A DNA stretch of 10,610 nt, taken from the IMG/VR virus record IMGVR_UViG_2778261697_000001. One strand, given 5' to 3'. This stretch comes from a virus. Its lineage: Duplodnaviria > Heunggongvirae > Uroviricota > Caudoviricetes. The notes under the pieces were generated by a model. That model saw only the letters and a program-made list of their open reading frames with translations. It was not told the DNA's origin and did no database searches. Made by a program: the position numbers and the translations under genes. Below are positions 1-10,610 of the stretch, piece by piece; positions within the stretch are counted from its first letter, which is position 1, and each line of letters starts with the position of its first letter.

Positions 1-132
1 GTCCATTTCCGCGCAGACGATGACGTCACTGCCCGGCTGTATGCGCGAGGTTACCGACTGCGGCCTGAGTTTTTTAAGTGACGTAAAATCGTGTTGAGGC
101 CAACGCCCATAATGCGGGCAGTTGCCCGGCAT
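1..132 (-). CDS. insB: IS1 InsB, 5' part only (continues beyond the window edge)
   Basis: Mirror image of 10479-10610. It reads [44 protein letters not shown] in the -1 frame relative to insA and is open to the window edge. Confidence 0.8.
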
Positions 133-326
133 CCAACGCCATTCATGGCCATATCAATGATTTTCTGGTGCGTACCGGGTTGAGAAGCGGTGTAAGTGAA
201 CTGCAGTTGCCATGTTTTACGGCAGTGAGAGCAGAGATAGCGCTGATGTCCGGCGGTGCTTTTGCCGTTACGCACCACCCCGTCAGTAGCTGAACAGGAG
301 GGACAGCTGATAGAAACAGAAGCCAC
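51..326 (-). CDS. insA: IS1 InsA (transposition inhibitor / N-terminal part of the InsAB' transposase)
   Basis: 91-aa [43 protein letters not shown]... with the characteristic Cys-rich zinc-finger start; identical to the ORF at 10285-10560. Confidence 0.95.
69..77 (-). promoter_or_regulatory. IS1 programmed -1 ribosomal frameshift motif (A6C slippery site) joining insA to insB'
   Basis: Plus strand reads GTTTTTTAA here, i.e. TTAAAAAAC on the coding strand near the 3' end of insA. That this motif drives InsAB' frameshifting is established IS1 biology. Confidence 0.7.
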
Positions 327-359
327 TGGAGCACCTCAAAAACACCATCATACACTAAA

Positions 360-692
360 TCAGTAAGTTGGCAGCATCACCGCTGGCATGAATTCATTTT
401 CAGTTCTGAATTTAATAATTATAGAGTCAGTAAAGTCCTTATCAATGGATTGTACGATACCTCTAACGGCGATTAATTTACCTTTTAACTGTTCATCGGT
501 AGCGACTTCATTTTCTTCATACTCTTTAAACAGCTGTCGAGCAGTAGTGTTGTAGATTTCTTTTTGCGGTGCCGCAGCTTCCGTATCGGATGAGTATGAA
601 GAATTAGAGCCTTTATCGTTATTGCCTGCAAAATATCCAATAATCACCAACCCGATGAAAATATATAAAATCCATTTTAATAATTTCTTCAT
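360..692 (-). CDS. Membrane-anchored OB-fold protein (tRNA_anti-like / BOF-like family), 3' end replaced by IS1 sequence
   Basis: N-terminal Lys-rich start followed by a hydrophobic helix (MKKLLKWILYIFIGLVIIGYFAG). C-terminal YEENEVATDEQLKGKLIAVRGIVQSI resembles the OB-fold tRNA_anti-like family, assigned from memory. The last 6 codons and the TGA stop (360-380) lie inside the IS1 terminal repeat, so the native C-terminus is missing. AT-rich, unlike the adjacent tail operon. Confidence 0.55.
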   Translation of the reverse strand: MKKLLKWILYIFIGLVIIGYFAGNNDKGSNSSYSSDTEAAAPQKEIYNTTARQLFKEYEENEVATDEQLKGKLIAVRGIVQSIDKDFTDSIIIKFRTENEFMPAVMLPTY

Positions 693-754
693 GTTATCAC
701 CTTAATGCTAATAATTTATATGGTTACAAATGGTAATGGCTACCACTACAAATT

Positions 755-2131
755 ATGGCATTACCAGTAAATATTACTACTGATAATAAATATGGGACTT
801 ATATGACGTGGAAAGACAGGCTTCAGGATGCGTCATTTCGCGGCGTACCGTTTAAAGTTGAAGAAGAAAGTGCGGGAACCGGTCGCCGTGTGGAAACACA
901 CGAATACCCGAACCGCGACAAGCCCTATACTGAAGATCTGGGAAAAGTCACTTTCCGCCCGTCCATCACGGCTTATGTGGTGGGAGATGACTGCTTTGAC
1001 CAGCGCGATCGCCTGATTGATGCGCTGAATAAACCCGGTCCCGGCACGCTTGTCCATCCGACATACGGTGAGCTGAAAGTCTGTGTTGACGGGGAAGTTC
1101 GGGTCAGCACATCGAAAAGTGAAGGGCGTATTGTCCGCTTTGACCTGAAGTTTGTCGAAGCGGGAGAACTCTCTTACCCCACATCAGGTGCGGCGACGGC
1201 GCAGACGCTGATGTCATCCTGTTTTGCACTGGATGACTGCATCAGTGGCAGCTTCAGCGGTTTCAGTATCGATGGCGTGGCGGATTTCGTGCAGAACGAC
1301 GTTATCGGTAATGCCGGCACAATGCTGGGGTATGTTTCTGATGCGATGAAAGTGGTGGATTCTGCTGTATCGGATGCCGCCAGGCTGTTGCAGGGAGATA
1401 TTTCGGTACTTCTGCCGCCGCCATCGTCAGGCAAAAATTTCGTTGAGCAGGTGCAGAAAATGTGGCGTACCGGGAAGCGCCTTTATGGTAACGCCAGCGA
1501 CCTGGTCACCATGATCAAAACGCTTTCCGGTGTCAGCCTCGGCAGCGATCTGCAACCGCGCGGTGTCTGGAAAACGGACAGTAAAACCACCGCCACGGCA
1601 ACGCAGCAGCGTAACGTGGTTGCCAGCACCCTTCGTACGACCGCAATCAGCGAAGCGGCGTATGCCGTCACCCGGCTGCCTGCACCAACAACTTCCGCAG
1701 TGATGCAGAATTCCGCAGTGGGGCAGTCAACAACCCCCGCGCAGAGCACCGGCTGGCCTTCCGTCACGCATCCGGCACTGAACAATGCACCGGCGGTGAA
1801 AAACACGGTTGACCTGCCAACGTGGGAAGAACTGACCGACATTCGCGACACACTGAATACGGCAATTGAGAAGGAGTTGTCCCGTACAACCAGTGATGCG
1901 CTGTTTCTGGCGCTGCGCCGGGTGAAAGCAGATCTGAATGCGGATATCAACACGCGCCTTGAACAGTCTGCACGGATCATTCAGCGCACACCGGATGAGG
2001 TTTTACCCGCGCTGGTGCTGGCGGCGACCTGGTTTGATAACGCGGCGCGTGACGCGGACATTATCCGGCGTAATGCCATTACGCATCCCGGCTTTGTGCC
2101 GGTGATCCCTCTGAAGGTGCCAGTGCAATGA
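755..2131 (+). CDS. Mu gpN-like DNA circularisation protein (tail/baseplate module)
   Basis: 458-aa ORF. The N-terminal WKDRLQDASFRGVPFKVEEESAGTGRRVETHEYPNRDKPYTEDLG block matches the DNA_circ_N-type domain of Mu N homologues as I recall it, followed by a Ser/Thr/Ala/Pro-rich linker. The first 16 codons are AT-rich with no Shine-Dalgarno sequence, so the real start may be the ATG at 803 (MTWKDRL...). The stop overlaps the next start (ATGA at 2128-2131). Confidence 0.75.
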   Translation: MALPVNITTDNKYGTYMTWKDRLQDASFRGVPFKVEEESAGTGRRVETHEYPNRDKPYTEDLGKVTFRPSITAYVVGDDCFDQRDRLIDALNKPGPGTLVHPTYGELKVCVDGEVRVSTSKSEGRIVRFDLKFVEAGELSYPTSGAATAQTLMSSCFALDDCISGSFSGFSIDGVADFVQNDVIGNAGTMLGYVSDAMKVVDSAVSDAARLLQGDISVLLPPPSSGKNFVEQVQKMWRTGKRLYGNASDLVTMIKTLSGVSLGSDLQPRGVWKTDSKTTATATQQRNVVASTLRTTAISEAAYAVTRLPAPTTSAVMQNSAVGQSTTPAQSTGWPSVTHPALNNAPAVKNTVDLPTWEELTDIRDTLNTAIEKELSRTTSDALFLALRRVKADLNADINTRLEQSARIIQRTPDEVLPALVLAATWFDNAARDADIIRRNAITHPGFVPVIPLKVPVQ

Positions 2132-3207
2132 ACGATAACGTCACGCTACGGGTAAATGGCCGGGAGTGGAATGGCTGGACATCGGTGCGCATCGGTGCCG
2201 GTATTGAACGGCTGGCGCGGGATTTCAGTGTGGAGATCACCCGCCAGTGGCCGGGAGATGAGGGTATCACCACGCTTCAGCCGCGCATTAAAAACGGTTC
2301 AAAAGTGGAAGTGCTGATTGGTGATGAGCTGGTGATCACCGGCTGGGTGGAGGCGACTCCCGTTCGTTACGATGCCCGTTCGATCAGCACCGGTATTGCC
2401 GGACGCAGTCTGACCGCTGACCTGATTGACTGTGCAGCCGAACCGACACAGTTTAACGGACGATCGCTGGTACAGATTGCGCAGGCGCTTGCAGCGCCTT
2501 TCGGCATTGAGGTGGTGAACAGCGGCGCGCCGTCGGGTGTTATTCCTGATGTCCAGCCTGATCACGGCGAAACGGTGATTGAGGTGATCAACAAAATACT
2601 CGGTCAGCAGCAGGCACTGGCTTACGACGACCCGCACGGCAGGCTGGTGATTGGCGGTATTGGCTCAACGCGGGCACATACCGCGCTGGTACTCGGGGAA
2701 AACATCCTTTCCTGCGATACGGAGAAGAGTATCCGGGAGCGGTTTTCAGTTTACCAGGTGGCGGGGCAGCGTGCCGGAAACGACGATGATTTCGGTGAGG
2801 CTACCACCACCGCGCTGCGGGCCCGCACAGAGGACGCATTTATTGCCCGTTACCGTCCGATGTATATCAGGCAGACAGGGCAGGCTACGGGGGCAGGCTG
2901 TATTGCCCGTGCTGACTTTGAAGCCCGACAACGGGCGGCACGGACGGATGAAACCACCTATGTGGTGCAGGGCTGGCGACAGGGTAACGGTACGCTGTGG
3001 CAGCCCAACCAGCGGGTGATTGTCTTCGATCCGGTCTGTGGTTTCGATAATACCGAACTGCTTGTTTCGGAAGTCACGTTTACTCAGGACCAGAACGGCA
3101 CCCTGACGGAAATCCGTGTCGGCCCGCCTGATGCTTATCTGCCTGAACCCGAAGCCCCCGGCGCGCGGAAAAAGAAAAAAGCCAGAGTACAGGAGGACCC
3201 GTTCTGA
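2128..3207 (+). CDS. Mu gpP / gp44-like baseplate hub protein (phage late control gene D family)
   Basis: 359-aa ORF in conserved Mu-like order between the gpN-like and gpV-like genes. Start is coupled to the upstream stop; AAGGTG lies upstream. GC-rich phage-type codon usage. Family assigned from position and general sequence character. Confidence 0.7.
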   Translation: MNDNVTLRVNGREWNGWTSVRIGAGIERLARDFSVEITRQWPGDEGITTLQPRIKNGSKVEVLIGDELVITGWVEATPVRYDARSISTGIAGRSLTADLIDCAAEPTQFNGRSLVQIAQALAAPFGIEVVNSGAPSGVIPDVQPDHGETVIEVINKILGQQQALAYDDPHGRLVIGGIGSTRAHTALVLGENILSCDTEKSIRERFSVYQVAGQRAGNDDDFGEATTTALRARTEDAFIARYRPMYIRQTGQATGAGCIARADFEARQRAARTDETTYVVQGWRQGNGTLWQPNQRVIVFDPVCGFDNTELLVSEVTFTQDQNGTLTEIRVGPPDAYLPEPEAPGARKKKKARVQEDPF

Positions 3208-3755
3208 TGAGGACGATTGAAGCCATGCAGCGACAACTCCTCGGCCTGATTGGGCGGGCCGTGGTGAAAAGCATCAGTGCCGCCACGAAATGTCAGACCG
3301 TGGATGTGTCCCTGATTGCCGGTGAACCCAAAGCCGGGGTTGAGCATCTTGAACCCTACGGTTTTACCGCAAGGGCAAACAGCGGTGCAGAAGCGGTGGT
3401 GTTGTTTCCGGATGGCGACCGTTCTCATGCGGTAGTTGTTACGGTGTCGGACCGGCGCTACCGCCTGAAAGGGCTGCAGACGGGTGAGGTGGCTGTCTAT
3501 GACGATCAGGGGCAGTCCGTGATGCTGACCCGGGAGGGGATCGTGGTGGACGGTGCAGGTAAAACGATCACGTTTCGCAATGCACCTGAAGCACGTTTTG
3601 AAATGGACCTTGAAGTGACCGGACAGGTGAAAGACCTGTGCGACTCCGGCGGCACCACCATGTCAGCGATGCGGCTTGCTTATAACGGGCATCGTCACAG
3701 AGAGAACGGTCAGGGCAGTAACACCGACAAACCTGATAAAGCGATGGAGGCATGA
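3207..3755 (+). CDS. Baseplate assembly protein V / Mu gp45-like spike
   Basis: 182-aa ORF with the pattern LEPYGFTARANSGAEAVVLFPDGDRSHAVVV typical of the gpV family (from memory). Strong Shine-Dalgarno AGGAGGA at 3191-3197. Start overlaps the upstream stop (TGATG). Confidence 0.75.
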   Translation: MRTIEAMQRQLLGLIGRAVVKSISAATKCQTVDVSLIAGEPKAGVEHLEPYGFTARANSGAEAVVLFPDGDRSHAVVVTVSDRRYRLKGLQTGEVAVYDDQGQSVMLTREGIVVDGAGKTITFRNAPEARFEMDLEVTGQVKDLCDSGGTTMSAMRLAYNGHRHRENGQGSNTDKPDKAMEA

Positions 3756-4180
3756 TGGAACTGTGGCTGACGGTGAACGGTAAACGCACCTGCGCCAGCG
3801 CACCGCTGGATCCGCTGACCCGCGCCGTGGTGATTTCCCTGTTCACCTGGCGGCGGGCGGAGCCTGATGACAATGCCGACGTCCCGATGGGATGGTGGGG
3901 GGATACCTGGCCTGCGGTACAGAATGACCGTTACGGCTCCCGACTGTGGCTGCTTCAGCGCAGCAAACTGACCAATCAGCTGGTGCAGACGGTAAGGGGG
4001 TATATCCGCGAATGCCTGCAATGGATGATTGATGACGGCGTGGTGTCCCGTATTGATCTGGATATCCGCCGCACCGGGATTAATGAACTGGGTAACAGTA
4101 TCACTCTCTGGCGTCGTGACGGACCGGTAATGATTTCTTTTGATGATCTGTGGAGTGCGATAACGCATGGCGGACAGTGA
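3752..4180 (+). CDS. Mu gp46-like baseplate protein
   Basis: 142-aa ORF of the size and position of Mu gp46. GGAGG at 3746-3750; the second ATG at 3755 has the better spacing and may be the true start. Overlaps the stop of the gp45-like gene. Confidence 0.7.
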   Translation: MMELWLTVNGKRTCASAPLDPLTRAVVISLFTWRRAEPDDNADVPMGWWGDTWPAVQNDRYGSRLWLLQRSKLTNQLVQTVRGYIRECLQWMIDDGVVSRIDLDIRRTGINELGNSITLWRRDGPVMISFDDLWSAITHGGQ

Positions 4181-5225
4181 ATTTCAGCGCCCGACGCTGG
4201 CAGAAAATATCAGTATGCTCCGTAACGATTTATTCGCCAGGCTGGACGTCAGCGACACGCTCCGGCGCATGGATGAAGACGTGCGGGCAAAGGTGTATGC
4301 GGCGGCGCTGCATACGGTTTACGGGTACATCGATTATCTGGCAATGAATATGCTGCCTGACCTGTGCGATGAGTCCTGGCTGGCGCGACATGCTGCGATG
4401 AAACGGTGTCCGCGCAAGGGGGCCACGGCTGCCAGCGGGTATATGCGCTGGGAAGGTGTCAGCGATGGCCTGAAGGTGACTGCCGGGAGCGTGATTCAGC
4501 GCGATGACCTGGTTCAGTACACGGCAACTGCCGATGCAACCAGCTCCGGTGGTGTCCTGCGTGTGCCGATCACTTGCTCAACTACAGGCGCGGTCGGTAA
4601 CGCTGACGACGGTACGGCATTAATCCTGGTCACGCCGGTGAATGGTCTGCCGTCTTCCGGTGTGGCTGACACCCTGACAGGCGGATTTGATACTGAAGAG
4701 CTGGAAACGTGGCGCGCCCGCGTCATTGAGCGGTATTACTGGACGCCTCAGGGCGGGGCTGACGGGGACTATGTCGTCTGGGCTAAAGAAGTGCCCGGCA
4801 TTACCCGCGCATGGACATACCGACACTGGATGGGAACGGGGACTGTCGGTGTGATGATTGCCAGCAGTGACCTGATTAATCCCATTCCGGAAGAGTCAAC
4901 GGAAACGGCGGCAAGACAACATATCGAGCCACTGGCCCCGGTGGCAGGCTCTGATTTGTATGTATTCAGGCCGGTGGCGCATAAAGTGGATTTTCATATC
5001 CGCGTGACGCCGGACACACCGGAAATACGGGCTGCCATCACCGCGGAGTTGCGTTCGTTCTTGCTGCGTGATGGTTATCCGCAGGGAGAACTGAAGGTGT
5101 CGCGTATCAGTGAGGCGATTTCCGGTGCGAACGGGGAATACAGCCATCAGTTGCTTGCACCGGCGGACAATATCTCCATTGCAAAAAATGAACTGGCGGT
5201 ACTGGGGACGATTTCATGGACGTGA
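4167..5225 (+). CDS. Baseplate J-like protein (Mu gp47-like)
   Basis: 352-aa ORF in the expected position after the gp46-like gene, overlapping it by 14 nt. Size and order fit the baseplate J family. Confidence 0.75.
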
Positions 5226-5800
5226 CAAACGATGATTACATCCGTCTGTTGTCGGCACTGTTGCCCCCCGGTCCGGCGTGGTCAGCCAGCGATCCGGCGA
5301 TTGCCGGTGCGGCACCGTCATTAACCCGCGTTCATCAGCGTGCGGATGCCCTGATGCGGGAGCTGGATCCGCGCACCACCACTGAACTGATAAACCGCTG
5401 GGAGCGTCTGTGCGGTCTGCCGGATGAATGTATTCCCGCAGGGACACAGACCCTTCGCCAGCGTCAGCAACGGCTGGATGCGAAGGTTAACCTGGCGGGC
5501 GGCATCAATGAGGATTTTTACCTTGCGCAGCTTGCTGCCCTGGGTAGACCAGATGCCACCATCACGCGATACGACAAAAGCACGTTCACCTGCTCATCGG
5601 CTTGTACTGACGAGGTGAATGCGCCGGAATGGCGGTATTACTGGCAGGTCAATATGCCAGCTGCCACCAACACCACCTGGATGACATGTGGCGATCCCTG
5701 CGATTCCGCACTGCGTATCTGGGGGGACACCGTTATCGAGTGCGTGCTTAACAAACTCTGCCCGTCGCATACCTACGTAATTTTTAAATATCCGGAGTAA
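5216..5800 (+). CDS. Mu gp48-like tail protein (YmfQ-like, DUF2313-type)
   Basis: 194-aa ORF overlapping the baseplate J gene by 10 nt. Length and position match gp48/YmfQ-type proteins that precede tail-fibre genes. Confidence 0.7.
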
Positions 5801-5803
5801 TCC

Positions 5804-6730
5804 ATGCATCGTATAGACACGAAAACCGCGCAAAAGGATAAGTTCGGCGCGGGTAAGAACGGTTTTACCCGTGGTAACCCCCAGACAGGCACGCCTGCCA
5901 CCGATCTGGATGATGACTACTTTGACATGTTGCAGGAAGAGCTCTGCAGCGTGGTGGAGGCATCCGGTGCCAGCCTGGAGAAGGGGCGGCATGACCAGCT
6001 GCTTACCGCGCTTCGTGCGCTGCTGTTAAGTCGCAAAAATCCGTTTGGCGATATCAAATCGGACGGCACGGTGAAAACGGCTCTTCAAAACCTTGGTTTG
6101 GGAGATACAAGCGGATACGTGGGACGCTGGGTGAATACCCGGGTTTTCACGTCATCAGGTACGTACACCCCGACGCCAGGAACAAAACGGATCAGGGTCA
6201 CAATAACGGGCGGCGGTGGCGGAGGGGGCGGCTGCAAGGCTATATCCAATAATGAAACGTTTTTCGGTGCTGGCGGCGGGGCAGGTGGGACAGTAATCAC
6301 CACGCTGATCCTGACGAAGGATAGTTATCCTGTCACTATCGGCGCAGGTGGGGCCGGCGGCGTTAGTGCGACGAACGGCTTCAAGGGCGGTGATAGCTCG
6401 TTCGGATCGGTAATAGCCCCTGGTGGTGAAGGTGGTGGAAAATCAGGAGTCACAAACACGAACGGTGGTAACGGCGGTGTGCCAAGTACTGGCGGTATCA
6501 ACATCATTGGTGGAAATGGAGGCGACGGTCAGTCCGGAAATATCGGCGTCAGCGGTGAAGGCGGAACATCGTACTGGGGGGGCGGTGGACGCGCAGGCGC
6601 TGGCGGTGGTGTTAGTGGTAAGGCATATGGTTCAGGTGGCGGTGGCGCATACGATGCCGGTTATAGCGGAACCAGTATGACAGGCGGGAAAGGTGCTGCT
6701 GGGGTTTGTATTATCGAGGAGTTTGCATAA
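5804..6730 (+). CDS. Tail fibre protein with conserved N-terminal anchor domain and glycine-rich C-terminal repeat domain
   Basis: 308-aa ORF. N-terminus [53 protein letters not shown] is the conserved prophage tail-fibre N-terminal domain (from memory). From about residue 140 the C-terminus is dominated by GGxGG repeats. GGAG Shine-Dalgarno 6 nt upstream. Confidence 0.8.
6190..6700 (+). repeat. Degenerate GGN-rich coding repeats (glycine-rich domain of the tail fibre)
   Basis: Direct reading shows runs such as ggcggcggtggcggagggggcggctgc and ggcgcaggtggggccggcggcgtt. The complementary strand yields artefactual Pro-rich ORFs. Confidence 0.6.
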
Positions 6731-7146
6731 TGAATGCGTCATATGCAGTTATTGAAAATGGGATGGTTGTGAATGTCATTGTCTGGGATGGCGAGGATGA
6801 ATTCACTGTGCCGGATAATCTGCAGCTCATTAATATTTCTGATATCAGTGAGCAGCCCGGAATTGGCTGGGCGTATTCAGACGGGGTATTTACTGCGCCG
6901 CTCCCTCCGGAACGTTCTCATGATGAACTGGTAGCTGACGCTGAACAGAAAAAACAGTCGCTGATAGACGCAGCAATGGCCAATATCAGCGTGATTCAGT
7001 TAAAGCTGCAGGCCGGGCGCAAACTGACGCAAGAAGAAACTACCCGACTTAACGTTGTGCTGGATTATATCGAGGCTGTGACGGCAACAGATACCAGCAT
7101 TGCACCGGATATTGAGTGGCCGGATGAACCGTGCTTCGCTGAATAA
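6730..7146 (+). CDS. Tail fibre assembly protein (Tfa chaperone)
   Basis: The C-terminus TATDTSIAPDIEWPDEPCFAE matches the conserved Tfa C-terminal motif (lambda Tfa ends ...TSTAPDIEWP...). ATG at 6730 overlaps the tail-fibre stop and has GAGGAG 8 nt upstream. The ORF track start at 6706 is probably an upstream extension. Confidence 0.8.
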   Translation: MNASYAVIENGMVVNVIVWDGEDEFTVPDNLQLINISDISEQPGIGWAYSDGVFTAPLPPERSHDELVADAEQKKQSLIDAAMANISVIQLKLQAGRKLTQEETTRLNVVLDYIEAVTATDTSIAPDIEWPDEPCFAE

Positions 7147-7406: not shown

Positions 7407-8474
7407 TTAATGAAATTTATCTCGGATGAATTGTTGCGATGGCTTTTCAATGAATATATATGACATATAGCTAATTGCCATTAATGTAAGCATGAATAAA
7501 ATGAATACCTTGGGGCTGTAAAAAAGATCGCGTCCATAGCCAATCTTGTCAGCTAAATAAACAACAATGATTTGCAAAGGAAAATGTAAAAGATAGGATG
7601 AATAACTGATATCACCCAACCATTCAATTTTTTCCCCAAAATCGTTTCGTATTGCGCTAATTGACACAAGGAAAAAGATTATGGAGGTAAATCCGAATAA
7701 GATAATTGAGAATATATCTGCTACTTGCAGGGTAAAGATAACTCCCCATGAGATCAATAGAAAAACACAAGCAAAAATAAAAAATAACTTTGCGCTAATA
7801 TTTTTTATGACAGCAATCGTAATTTTATAGGTCAGACCACCAATAAAGAAAGAGAATGCGCCGATCATTATGGGATTGTTAATTTTGAAAAAGTAGTACG
7901 ACAATGCAACTATTAAAATTGATATGAATGTTGTTTTTGATGTGAACTTGCATAATATAAAAAATATCATGTACATAAGTACTTCAATCGACACGGACCA
8001 TGTCGGGGCGTTGAAGGACCAACCTCGCTCAAATCCCCATGATTGAATCATCAATAAATTCAGAATGGCATGGTAAATGTCATTCATAGGATAAACAAAA
8101 AAATAATTATGACTTTTAAAGAAAATAATTTGTAATATTGCCACGACAGCAAATGTAAATATATAAAGTGGATATAATCTACTGACACGGTTAACTATAA
8201 AAGTTTTTGCTGAGGTTTTATTGCTGTGTATATTGTCAGCGTATAGATAAAAAAATATGAATCCAGAAATCATAAAAAACAATTCGACAGCATATAAACC
8301 GTAATGATAAAAGACGGAAAAAAAATCATAAAAAGGTTGGCGGTTTATGATTATGTCAGATGCAGCATTCTTTTTCATAAAAAAATGTTGCCAATGCCAT
8401 AACACAACGGAAAGTGCGGCAAATCCTCTCAGAACATCCAGGGTATATATTCTCTTCCCAAAAACATTCGTCAC
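7407..8474 (-). CDS. Acyltransferase family 3 integral membrane protein (OafA/Oac-like; putative O-antigen or surface polysaccharide acetyltransferase)
   Basis: 355-aa ORF with the hallmark N-terminal motif LDVLRGFAALSVVLWH and the RLYPLY motif, and many hydrophobic helices. GTG start with AAGAGG 7 nt upstream. Very AT-rich (about 22-33% GC on sampled lines, against about 57% in the tail genes). Confidence 0.85.
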   Translation of the reverse strand: MTNVFGKRIYTLDVLRGFAALSVVLWHWQHFFMKKNAASDIIINRQPFYDFFSVFYHYGLYAVELFFMISGFIFFYLYADNIHSNKTSAKTFIVNRVSRLYPLYIFTFAVVAILQIIFFKSHNYFFVYPMNDIYHAILNLLMIQSWGFERGWSFNAPTWSVSIEVLMYMIFFILCKFTSKTTFISILIVALSYYFFKINNPIMIGAFSFFIGGLTYKITIAVIKNISAKLFFIFACVFLLISWGVIFTLQVADIFSIILFGFTSIIFFLVSISAIRNDFGEKIEWLGDISYSSYLLHFPLQIIVVYLADKIGYGRDLFYSPKVFILFMLTLMAISYMSYIFIEKPSQQFIRDKFH

Positions 8475-9025: not shown

Positions 9026-9895
<870 letters not shown>

Positions 9896-10024: not shown

Positions 10025-10284
10025 TTAGCTGGTGAAATGTCGATAGTGCGAGTGTTGAATAATTTCTAGCCGTTATTGATTTTACGTATTTTTGTATGAG
10101 ATGATTTGCATCTCCTGCCACCGACCATCTATGACTATACGTCACCATTTCTAGGGCTGCTATGTGCCAAGAGCGGTAATTGACAGAGAGCAGCCCTATC
10201 TCAGTGGCTTTATTTTTTTAGAGATTGCAGGTGATGCTGCCAACTTACTGATTTAGTGTATGATGGTGTTTTTGAGGTGCTCCA

Positions 10285-10560
10285 GTGGCTTCTGTTTCTA
10301 TCAGCTGTCCCTCCTGTTCAGCTACTGACGGGGTGGTGCGTAACGGCAAAAGCACCGCCGGACATCAGCGCTATCTCTGCTCTCACTGCCGTAAAACATG
10401 GCAACTGCAGTTCACTTACACCGCTTCTCAACCCGGTACGCACCAGAAAATCATTGATATGGCCATGAATGGCGTTGGATGCCGGGCAACTGCCCGCATT
10501 ATGGGCGTTGGCCTCAACACGATTTTACGTCACTTAAAAAACTCAGGCCGCAGTCGGTAA
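10285..10560 (+). CDS. insA: IS1 InsA
   Basis: 91-aa ORF identical to the copy at 51-326. Confidence 0.95.
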
Positions 10561-10610
10561 CCTCGCGCATACAGCCGGGCAGTGACGTCATCGTCTGCGC
10601 GGAAATGGAC
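10479..10610 (+). CDS. insB: IS1 InsB, 5' part only (continues beyond the window end)
   Basis: ATG at 10479 opens the frame [44 protein letters not shown], which matches the InsB N-terminus as I recall it and is open to the window edge. Confidence 0.8.
10534..10542 (+). promoter_or_regulatory. IS1 programmed -1 ribosomal frameshift motif (TTAAAAAAC)
   Basis: A6C slippery sequence near the 3' end of insA, in the overlap with the insB frame. Confidence 0.7.

Follow-up and report, generated by a model that had tools for sequence, protein, structure and literature searches.

The ORF at positions 360 to 692 (minus strand) of the 10,610-nucleotide stretch of prophage DNA analysed here (hereafter, the window) corresponds to the 5' 70% of a prophage-borne moron gene that has 148 codons when intact. 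The junction at which its native sequence stops marks where an IS1-associated deletion or rearrangement ended, and we infer adjacent deletion as the mechanism. The account as a whole, in which the moron was cut at codon 104 by such a deletion or rearrangement and a dead, IS1-bounded remnant was left behind, is considered highly probable.

Structure of the junction and of the fusion ORF

The first 381 nt of the window (1-381, minus strand) were assigned to the left end of an IS1 of the IS1A type, on the basis of identity at 381 of 381 positions to L001 2620-3000 of E. coli EJN001, where a complete IS1A of 768 bp contains the exact counterpart of this segment. The window is a draft contig beginning inside IS1. 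The left terminal inverted repeat (IRL, 23 bp, 359-381, minus strand), identified by direct reading and by comparison with the right repeat (IRR) of the complete copy, abuts the OB-fold gene and is the reverse complement of GGTGATGCTGCCAACTTACTGAT. The two 23-bp terminal repeats of the element are imperfect (GGTGATGCTGCCAACTTACTGAT and GGTAATGACTCCAACTTATTGAT for IRL and IRR, respectively, the latter taken from the complete EJN001 copy), and IRL is present twice in the window, at 359-381 and at 10230-10252. The insA gene (51-326, minus strand) was taken from the ORF list and recognized by the Pfam families Zn_ribbon_InsA (1e-21) and HTH_Tnp_IS1 (5e-31); it runs in the same direction as the fusion ORF and lies 33 nt downstream of the fusion stop. 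The full InsAB', with DDE_Tnp_IS1 and the programmed -1 frameshift, is found in complete IS1 copies, of which the window itself carries the first 381 nt only. A 120-nt probe spanning the junction matched IS1 transposase features in 4970 of 5426 genomes, and at least 16 IS1 places were matched by the same probe in EJN001.

Homology to IS1-free relatives begins exactly at 382, so that the break lies between 381 and 382. The native remainder of the moron (382-692, minus strand) is 311 nt long, corresponding to 103 codons plus the GC of codon 104, and matches both L002 3001-3311 and L006 from 6001 on at 100% identity. The IS1-encoded tail (360-381, minus strand) was read from the codon listing as the third base of Ala104, the residues VMLPTY and the stop codon TGA at 360-362. 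The first-pass annotation had the ORF running directly into the IS1 terminal repeat at 381, and these coordinates were right, with the native sequence ending at 382. It had further attributed the final residues AVMLPTY and the stop to IS1; VMLPTY and TGA are indeed new, but the alanine is encoded by a hybrid codon (GC native, G from IS1) and is also present in the intact gene, where the codon is GCA. The ORF list, Pfam and the codon listing together give a product of 110 aa, in which 104 native-identical residues are followed by VMLPTY. The Shine-Dalgarno sequence AAGGTGA (697-703, minus strand), seen on direct reading, is intact and precedes the ATG by 4 nt.

The fusion protein is present in public collections as WP_225526332.1 and MCA4097632.1. 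A cluster look-up recorded it on 17 contigs and a gene-position index on at least 24, and it is annotated by RefSeq/PGAP as an ordinary CDS under the name 'OB-fold putative lipoprotein'.

The intact moron and its predicted product

In IS1-free E. coli (EH09-18-41, a15 and others) the intact allele is 447 nt and 148 aa long and is 100% identical to the window throughout the retained part; the gene in the window is therefore truncated and not naturally short, as had been proposed from the sequence. In the same cluster look-up, the 148-aa sequence was found on at least 1000 contigs, versus 17 for the 110-aa fusion. A protein search yielded 90 homologues, from genera including Escherichia, Buttiauxella, Scandinavium, Pantoea, Serratia and Erwinia; these are mostly 146-167 aa long, cover 99-100% of the 148-aa query at identities down to about 42% and align to its C-terminus. 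The possibility raised at first pass, that full-length homologues might end naturally at the equivalent position, is not borne out by this alignment. What has been lost is the C-terminal 44 residues, including two near-invariant cysteines; an alignment of 29 sequences shows eight positions conserved at 90% or more within this segment (L119, G122, C129, R134, G137, P139, G141 and C144). The 44 residues are replaced by six IS1-encoded ones, which agrees with the earlier description of the gene as a fusion or pseudogene. At intact loci the gene ends at a hairpin with a 9-bp stem followed by a T-run (terminator at L002 2861-2840), and this native 3' terminator has been lost together with the 44 residues.

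The OB-fold gene is a phage moron, as judged by its distinct GC content, its opposite strand, its absence from a related prophage and the possession of a terminator of its own at intact loci. Its GC content is 35.0% (382-692) versus 56.7% for the tail operon (755-7146); in intact prophages it is located on the opposite strand, between the tape-measure and DNA-circulation genes; and in the prophage of strain fS58a it is missing from the same slot, the distance from the tape-measure stop to the DNA-circulation start being 60 nt. The earlier view of the gene as AT-rich acquired cargo, unlike the GC-rich tail operon, was borne out by these comparisons. Among 5426 complete E. coli genomes, the gene is present in about 61-70, versus about 1000-2200 for the adjacent tail DNA. 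The host prophage is about 40 kb long, is integrated at thrW and combines lambdoid early genes with a Mu-like contractile tail. The moron and the DNA-circulation (Mu gp43-like) gene diverge from an intact intergenic region (693-802), the RefSeq start of the latter gene (DNA circularization) mapping to 803; scanning of 693-802 on the minus strand, upstream of 692, revealed no consensus sigma-70 match for the moron. The DNA circulation protein gene itself (803-2131, plus strand; Pfam DNA_circ_N, 3e-34, and annotation) is the first of the surviving Mu-like baseplate/tail-fibre block. Further along this block, annotations of the tail-fibre region (5804-6730 and 6706-7146; L004 12929-13855) vary among relatives (an stfP fragment and a glycine-rich-domain protein); the region is frameshifted in EH09-18-41 and appears mosaic or decayed.

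The protein was matched to the Pfam family PF12869 (tRNA_anti-like) with E=1.1e-13 and 51.4 bits in the truncated form (profile positions 5-100 of 146) and with E=3e-19 and 69.5 bits in the full-length form (profile positions 5-131), both above the gathering cut-off of 23.5 bits. Given this match for the truncated protein and the 381/381 match for IS1, neither the OB-fold nor the IS1 assignment is due to chance. In the AlphaFold model of the full-length protein (P0001, pLDDT 85.7), an N-terminal helix (residues 2-22) and a disordered linker (25-40) precede a compact domain, which opens with a strand (46-50), two helices (51-60, 62-69) and three strands (73-85, 91-95, 104-108) and continues with a helix (110-117) and C-terminal strands (124-129, 131-135, 138-146). 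The five-stranded OB barrel is complete in the 148-aa allele. The window copy ends at residue 104, and according to the same model its native part (382-692) encodes the transmembrane helix, the disordered linker, the two helices and the strands β1-β2; of the barrel it retains strands 73-85 and 91-95 and lacks β3 (104-108), the helix (110-117), β4 and β5, the segments 124-129, 131-135 and 138-146 all being lost. The best PDB match, obtained with Foldseek, was 3f1z (E=3e-5; TM 0.64, normalized by target length), a PF12869-type 'putative nucleic acid-binding lipoprotein' of K. pneumoniae, and further PDB matches were to the OB anticodon-binding domains of Asp-, Lys- and Asn-tRNA synthetases. The Pfam match, the model with its helix and barrel, and the match to 3f1z bring the initial designation of the gene as one for an OB-fold membrane protein onto firm ground. 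An NCBIfam spoIIIAG match was sub-threshold and was rejected.

The coding stretch for the hydrophobic helix (627-689, minus strand; residues 2-22) was delimited by the AlphaFold model, hydropathy (Kyte-Doolittle mean of 2.16 for residues 4-22) and the alignment, and is taken as a signal anchor. A lipobox of the form [LVI][ASTVI][GAS]C was absent from the protein and from all 29 aligned homologues; the protein reads ...VIIGYFAGNND at this place and has no cysteine before residue 129. Since the lipobox cysteine is missing, the protein is signal-anchored and not a lipoprotein, and the RefSeq name 'putative lipoprotein' is a misleading annotation, a family label and not a description. A cytoplasmic N-terminus and a periplasmic OB domain are suggested by the KK..K at the N-terminus and by the near-invariant cysteine pair of the C-terminal part.

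As to function, the protein was assigned to PHROG phrog_8545 (category 'moron', label 'superinfection exclusion Sie-like') at 1.5e-49 for the full-length form and 7e-33 for the truncated one, and it is from this label that a superinfection-exclusion-type role of the intact gene is suggested. PADLOC gave no match and has no model for the protein. A tblastn search of deposited phage genomes gave no close copy, and the distant matches, at 28-48% identity, were to Burkholderia, Bordetella and Klebsiella phages, where all are hypothetical proteins. A literature search on PF12869 prophage proteins returned no functional study.

Flanks of the two IS1 copies and history of the remnant

Of 5426 complete genomes, two have the junction: EJN001, isolated from urine in Jinan, China, and EBJ001. 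Both come from human samples, and megablast showed 100% identity between each of them and the entire unique part of the window. On its other side, the same IS1 borders in both genomes on DNA downstream of a gene for a LacI-family regulator, within a galactan/maltoporin cluster. The first-pass annotation had proposed that the missing 3' part of the gene be sought on the far side of IS1. It was not found there in EJN001 or EBJ001, where the far side is unrelated chromosome, and a target-site duplication of about 9 bp was likewise absent at this left IS1, the flanks of which read TGGGAGAGG and GCTGGCATG. The missing 171 nt (3' part and terminator) are present in 70 genomes; EJN001 and EBJ001 are not among the 69 of these 70 holders that were listed, though an identity of about 100% would be expected. 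From integrase through the tape-measure gene, the prophage (about 33.6 kb in EH09-18-41) is absent from the locus in both genomes. The statement that an IS1 insertion had cut the gene can accordingly be retained in one respect, the abutment of IRL on codon 104, but not as a simple insertion, the far side being unrelated and the duplication lacking. The absence of a target duplication marks the junctions as rearrangement end points and does not call the identity of the IS1 into question.

The left IS1 (L001 2233-3000) is a resident copy, and its outer (IRR) junction is shared with strain YDC107 (L008 9434-10201), in which the IRL side of the shared element is joined to different DNA, again without a duplication; the IS1-free strain L73 diverges at the same base as this shared outer junction. 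One fixed and one variable end, as reportedly described by Reif and Saedler in 1975, are the classic sign of an IS1-promoted adjacent deletion or rearrangement. The left IS1 site looks like a hotspot of repeated IS1-mediated rearrangement.

At the right end of the window, a second IS1 left-end fragment (10230-10610, plus strand) was recognized by sequence comparison as a perfect inverted copy of 1-381, so that both IS1 copies have IRL facing inwards. This second IS1 is the other edge of the prophage remnant, and in EJN001 a complete IS1A adjoins rclC. It is preceded by the last five codons, the stop and 2 nt of a SIR2-family gene of 936 aa (10210-10229, minus strand); the match of the window ends at L006 15849, and the SIR2 CDS occupies L006 15830-18640 (minus strand). 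The gene is intact in IS1-free relatives, and all but 20 nt of it is missing in the window. The position of rclC on the far side of the second IS1 in EJN001 implies that SIR2 and the intervening backbone have been lost. The interval between SIR2 and rclC contains the pao, ecp and ykg genes in YDC107, and in fS58a the backbone starts next to SIR2. No target duplication was found at the right IS1 (flanks GAGATTGCA and CAGACAGTG), and a search with its outer flank was uninformative, this flank being core rclC DNA.

Several other genes in this part of the window may be mentioned. A LEM-3-like GIY-YIG protein is encoded at 9026-9850 (minus strand), appears intact and matches the PADLOC model PD-T4-3, a single-gene anti-phage system, with E=1e-139. 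An Acyl_transf_3 membrane acyltransferase gene (7407-8474, minus strand) lies downstream of the tail-fibre genes and is possibly a moron that modifies the O-antigen; its CDS is annotated as 1191 nt in EH09-18-41 versus 1068 nt in EJN001 and a15. The PD-T4-3-like gene, the SIR2-family gene (itself a likely defence gene) and the acyltransferase gene make up an AT-rich (37.7% GC) cargo/defence cluster at the right end of the prophage.

In one E. coli lineage, the IRL end of one IS1 is joined to codon 104 of the moron. In the proposed history, the same event, or a series of events, took the prophage from integrase through the tape-measure gene (about 33 kb); the second, inverted IS1 took SIR2 and the adjoining backbone as far as rclC, with a dead prophage remnant of 9.85 kb left over. 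The arrangement at thrW bears on the order of events. In the closest IS1-free relatives (a15 and EH09-18-41) the prophage lies directly at thrW, and in EJN001 an island and a galactan-utilization cluster lie between thrW and the remnant; two in-situ deletions would thus need an ancestor in which the prophage was distal to the island, and a genome with island and prophage in tandem was not found among EJN001, a15, EH09-18-41, YDC107, L73 and fS58a. The EJN001 island (L007 27495-36204) follows thrW, is without an integrase and carries YfjI-family, inovirus Gp2-type and frameshifted reverse-transcriptase genes. The thrW-rclC interval is heavily rearranged, as the comparison of this island with the prophage at thrW in the closest relatives shows.

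It is somewhat unlikely, and yet worth weighing, that the unit of IS1, fragment and IS1 was moved or imported as a block, by composite transposition or IS1-IS1 recombination, after the gene had been cut at a donor site by an ordinary insertion. The two copies are inverted with both IRL inward, in the manner of a composite transposon, the remnant does not adjoin thrW as the prophage does in the closest relatives, and the 16 or more IS1 places of EJN001 matched by the junction probe count on the same side. However, there is no 9-bp duplication around the unit (TGGGAGAGG versus CAGACAGTG) and none of the swapped or inverted duplication pattern that IS1-IS1 inversion would give; the junction was found on no plasmid and at no other site in the 5426 genomes, and the remnant occupies the thrW-to-rclC interval in the orientation that the intact prophage has there. 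A block translocation or IS1-IS1 recombination would alter the history only and not the present state of the locus.

A simple IS1 insertion, with the intact 3' part and a 9-bp duplication just beyond the element, is highly improbable. Insertion of IS1 into AT-rich DNA is common, and the window ends inside IS1, so that the far side in its own strain lies outside it; against this, the two complete genomes that are 100% identical to its unique part have an unrelated far side and no duplication, and neither is among the 69 of 70 listed holders of the 3' part. That the junction is an assembly artefact, an IS1 repeat joined chimerically to a prophage contig, is hardly conceivable: the window is a short-read draft contig with collapsed IS1 at both ends, but two complete chromosomes share the junction, as do at least 24 independent contigs, with lengths of 5.7-10.6 kb. 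An exact-protein look-up matched the window to the 10,610-bp contig NTBG01000064.1 of assembly GCA_002811605.1. The contig ends are collapsed IS1 repeats, and sister contigs of 5.7-10.4 kb from other assemblies stop elsewhere, at other IS1 depths. We thus keep to the IS1-associated deletion or rearrangement as the origin of the junction.

Fate of the truncated allele and relation to known systems

Because two barrel strands cannot form an OB fold, loss of function of the 110-aa allele can reasonably be inferred, and its product would be a non-functional, probably unstable, membrane-anchored stub. Such an anchored stub may still be made, since the start codon, its Shine-Dalgarno sequence and the DNA upstream are intact and RefSeq calls an ordinary CDS. 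With the terminator gone and insA co-directional 33 nt downstream, transcription could run into IS1. A sigma-70-like site (TTGATA-16-TATAAT, 11/12 matches, 445-418, minus strand), a consensus match only, lies inside the OB coding region and points toward insA; the intact allele has it too (L002 3064-3037). Promoter consensus matches occur at background level, with 3 found versus 1.9 expected.

It is very unlikely that the 110-aa fusion is still functional or has acquired a new function, either as a small membrane protein or through read-through into insA. The intact start, Shine-Dalgarno sequence, transmembrane helix and linker would suit the former, and the lost terminator, co-directional insA and promoter-like 11/12 site pointing into IS1 would suit the latter. 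On the other hand, three of the five barrel strands and eight positions conserved at 90% or more are gone, the allele is restricted to one lineage, and promoter-like matches are no commoner than background. A non-functional stub thus appears the better description of the allele.

IS-mediated prophage decay is known in E. coli and Shigella, both from deletions of the Reif and Saedler type and from cryptic prophages such as e14 and CP4-6. The present locus resembles IS1-promoted adjacent deletion in having one IS1 end fixed (shared with YDC107), the other flank variable and no duplication, and it resembles IS1-mediated decay more generally in that large prophage blocks and their neighbours were lost and a tail-gene remnant remains; no difference in kind was seen. 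The phenomenon is textbook IS1-driven decay of a dead prophage in genomes that are already annotated.

With respect to the protein, the intact product shares with 3f1z, the PF12869-type structure, an OB barrel placed after an N-terminal signal for export or anchoring, and differs in having no lipobox; the window copy, in addition, lacks the C-terminal 30% of the domain. It is like Sie-like proteins (PHROG 8545) in being small, prophage-encoded and anchored at its N-terminus, and in being a moron expected to be expressed apart from the late operon, and it differs in that the label is annotation only for this family and that PADLOC has no model for it. Superinfection-exclusion proteins of the lactococcal Sie2009 type are membrane proteins, and we know of no exclusion phenotype for the PHROG 8545 OB-fold family. 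A transmembrane helix combined with an OB-fold-like domain is also found in the prophage- or plasmid-borne anti-phage proteins AbiP of Lactococcus and PdpSau of S. aureus prophages, in which the OB domain is cytoplasmic and binds nucleic acid (PMC10127798). In the protein studied here, by contrast, the positive-inside rule and the conserved cysteine pair suggest a periplasmic domain. AbiP and PdpSau may be regarded, at most, as analogues. Only tentatively, and with the odds judged to be against it, the intact 148-aa gene might represent an uncharacterised enterobacterial class of prophage exclusion or defence genes, coding for a signal-anchored periplasmic OB protein in a moron slot between the tape-measure and baseplate genes.

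The locus is a clean, well-documented example, from one E. coli lineage, of the erosion of a prophage and of its cargo and defence genes by IS1, and as such it matters little. The name given to WP_225526332.1 is misleading, a truncated allele without a lipobox being listed as a normal CDS. In a weaker variant of its possible significance, loss of the terminator would let moron transcription enter insA and alter how active this IS1 copy is. Membrane-anchored OB-fold prophage proteins labelled 'Sie-like' form a widespread family, to which the intact gene belongs and the putative exclusion role of which is the only mildly interesting thread; if the exclusion or defence reading were true, the IS1-truncated allele would provide a natural loss-of-function control.
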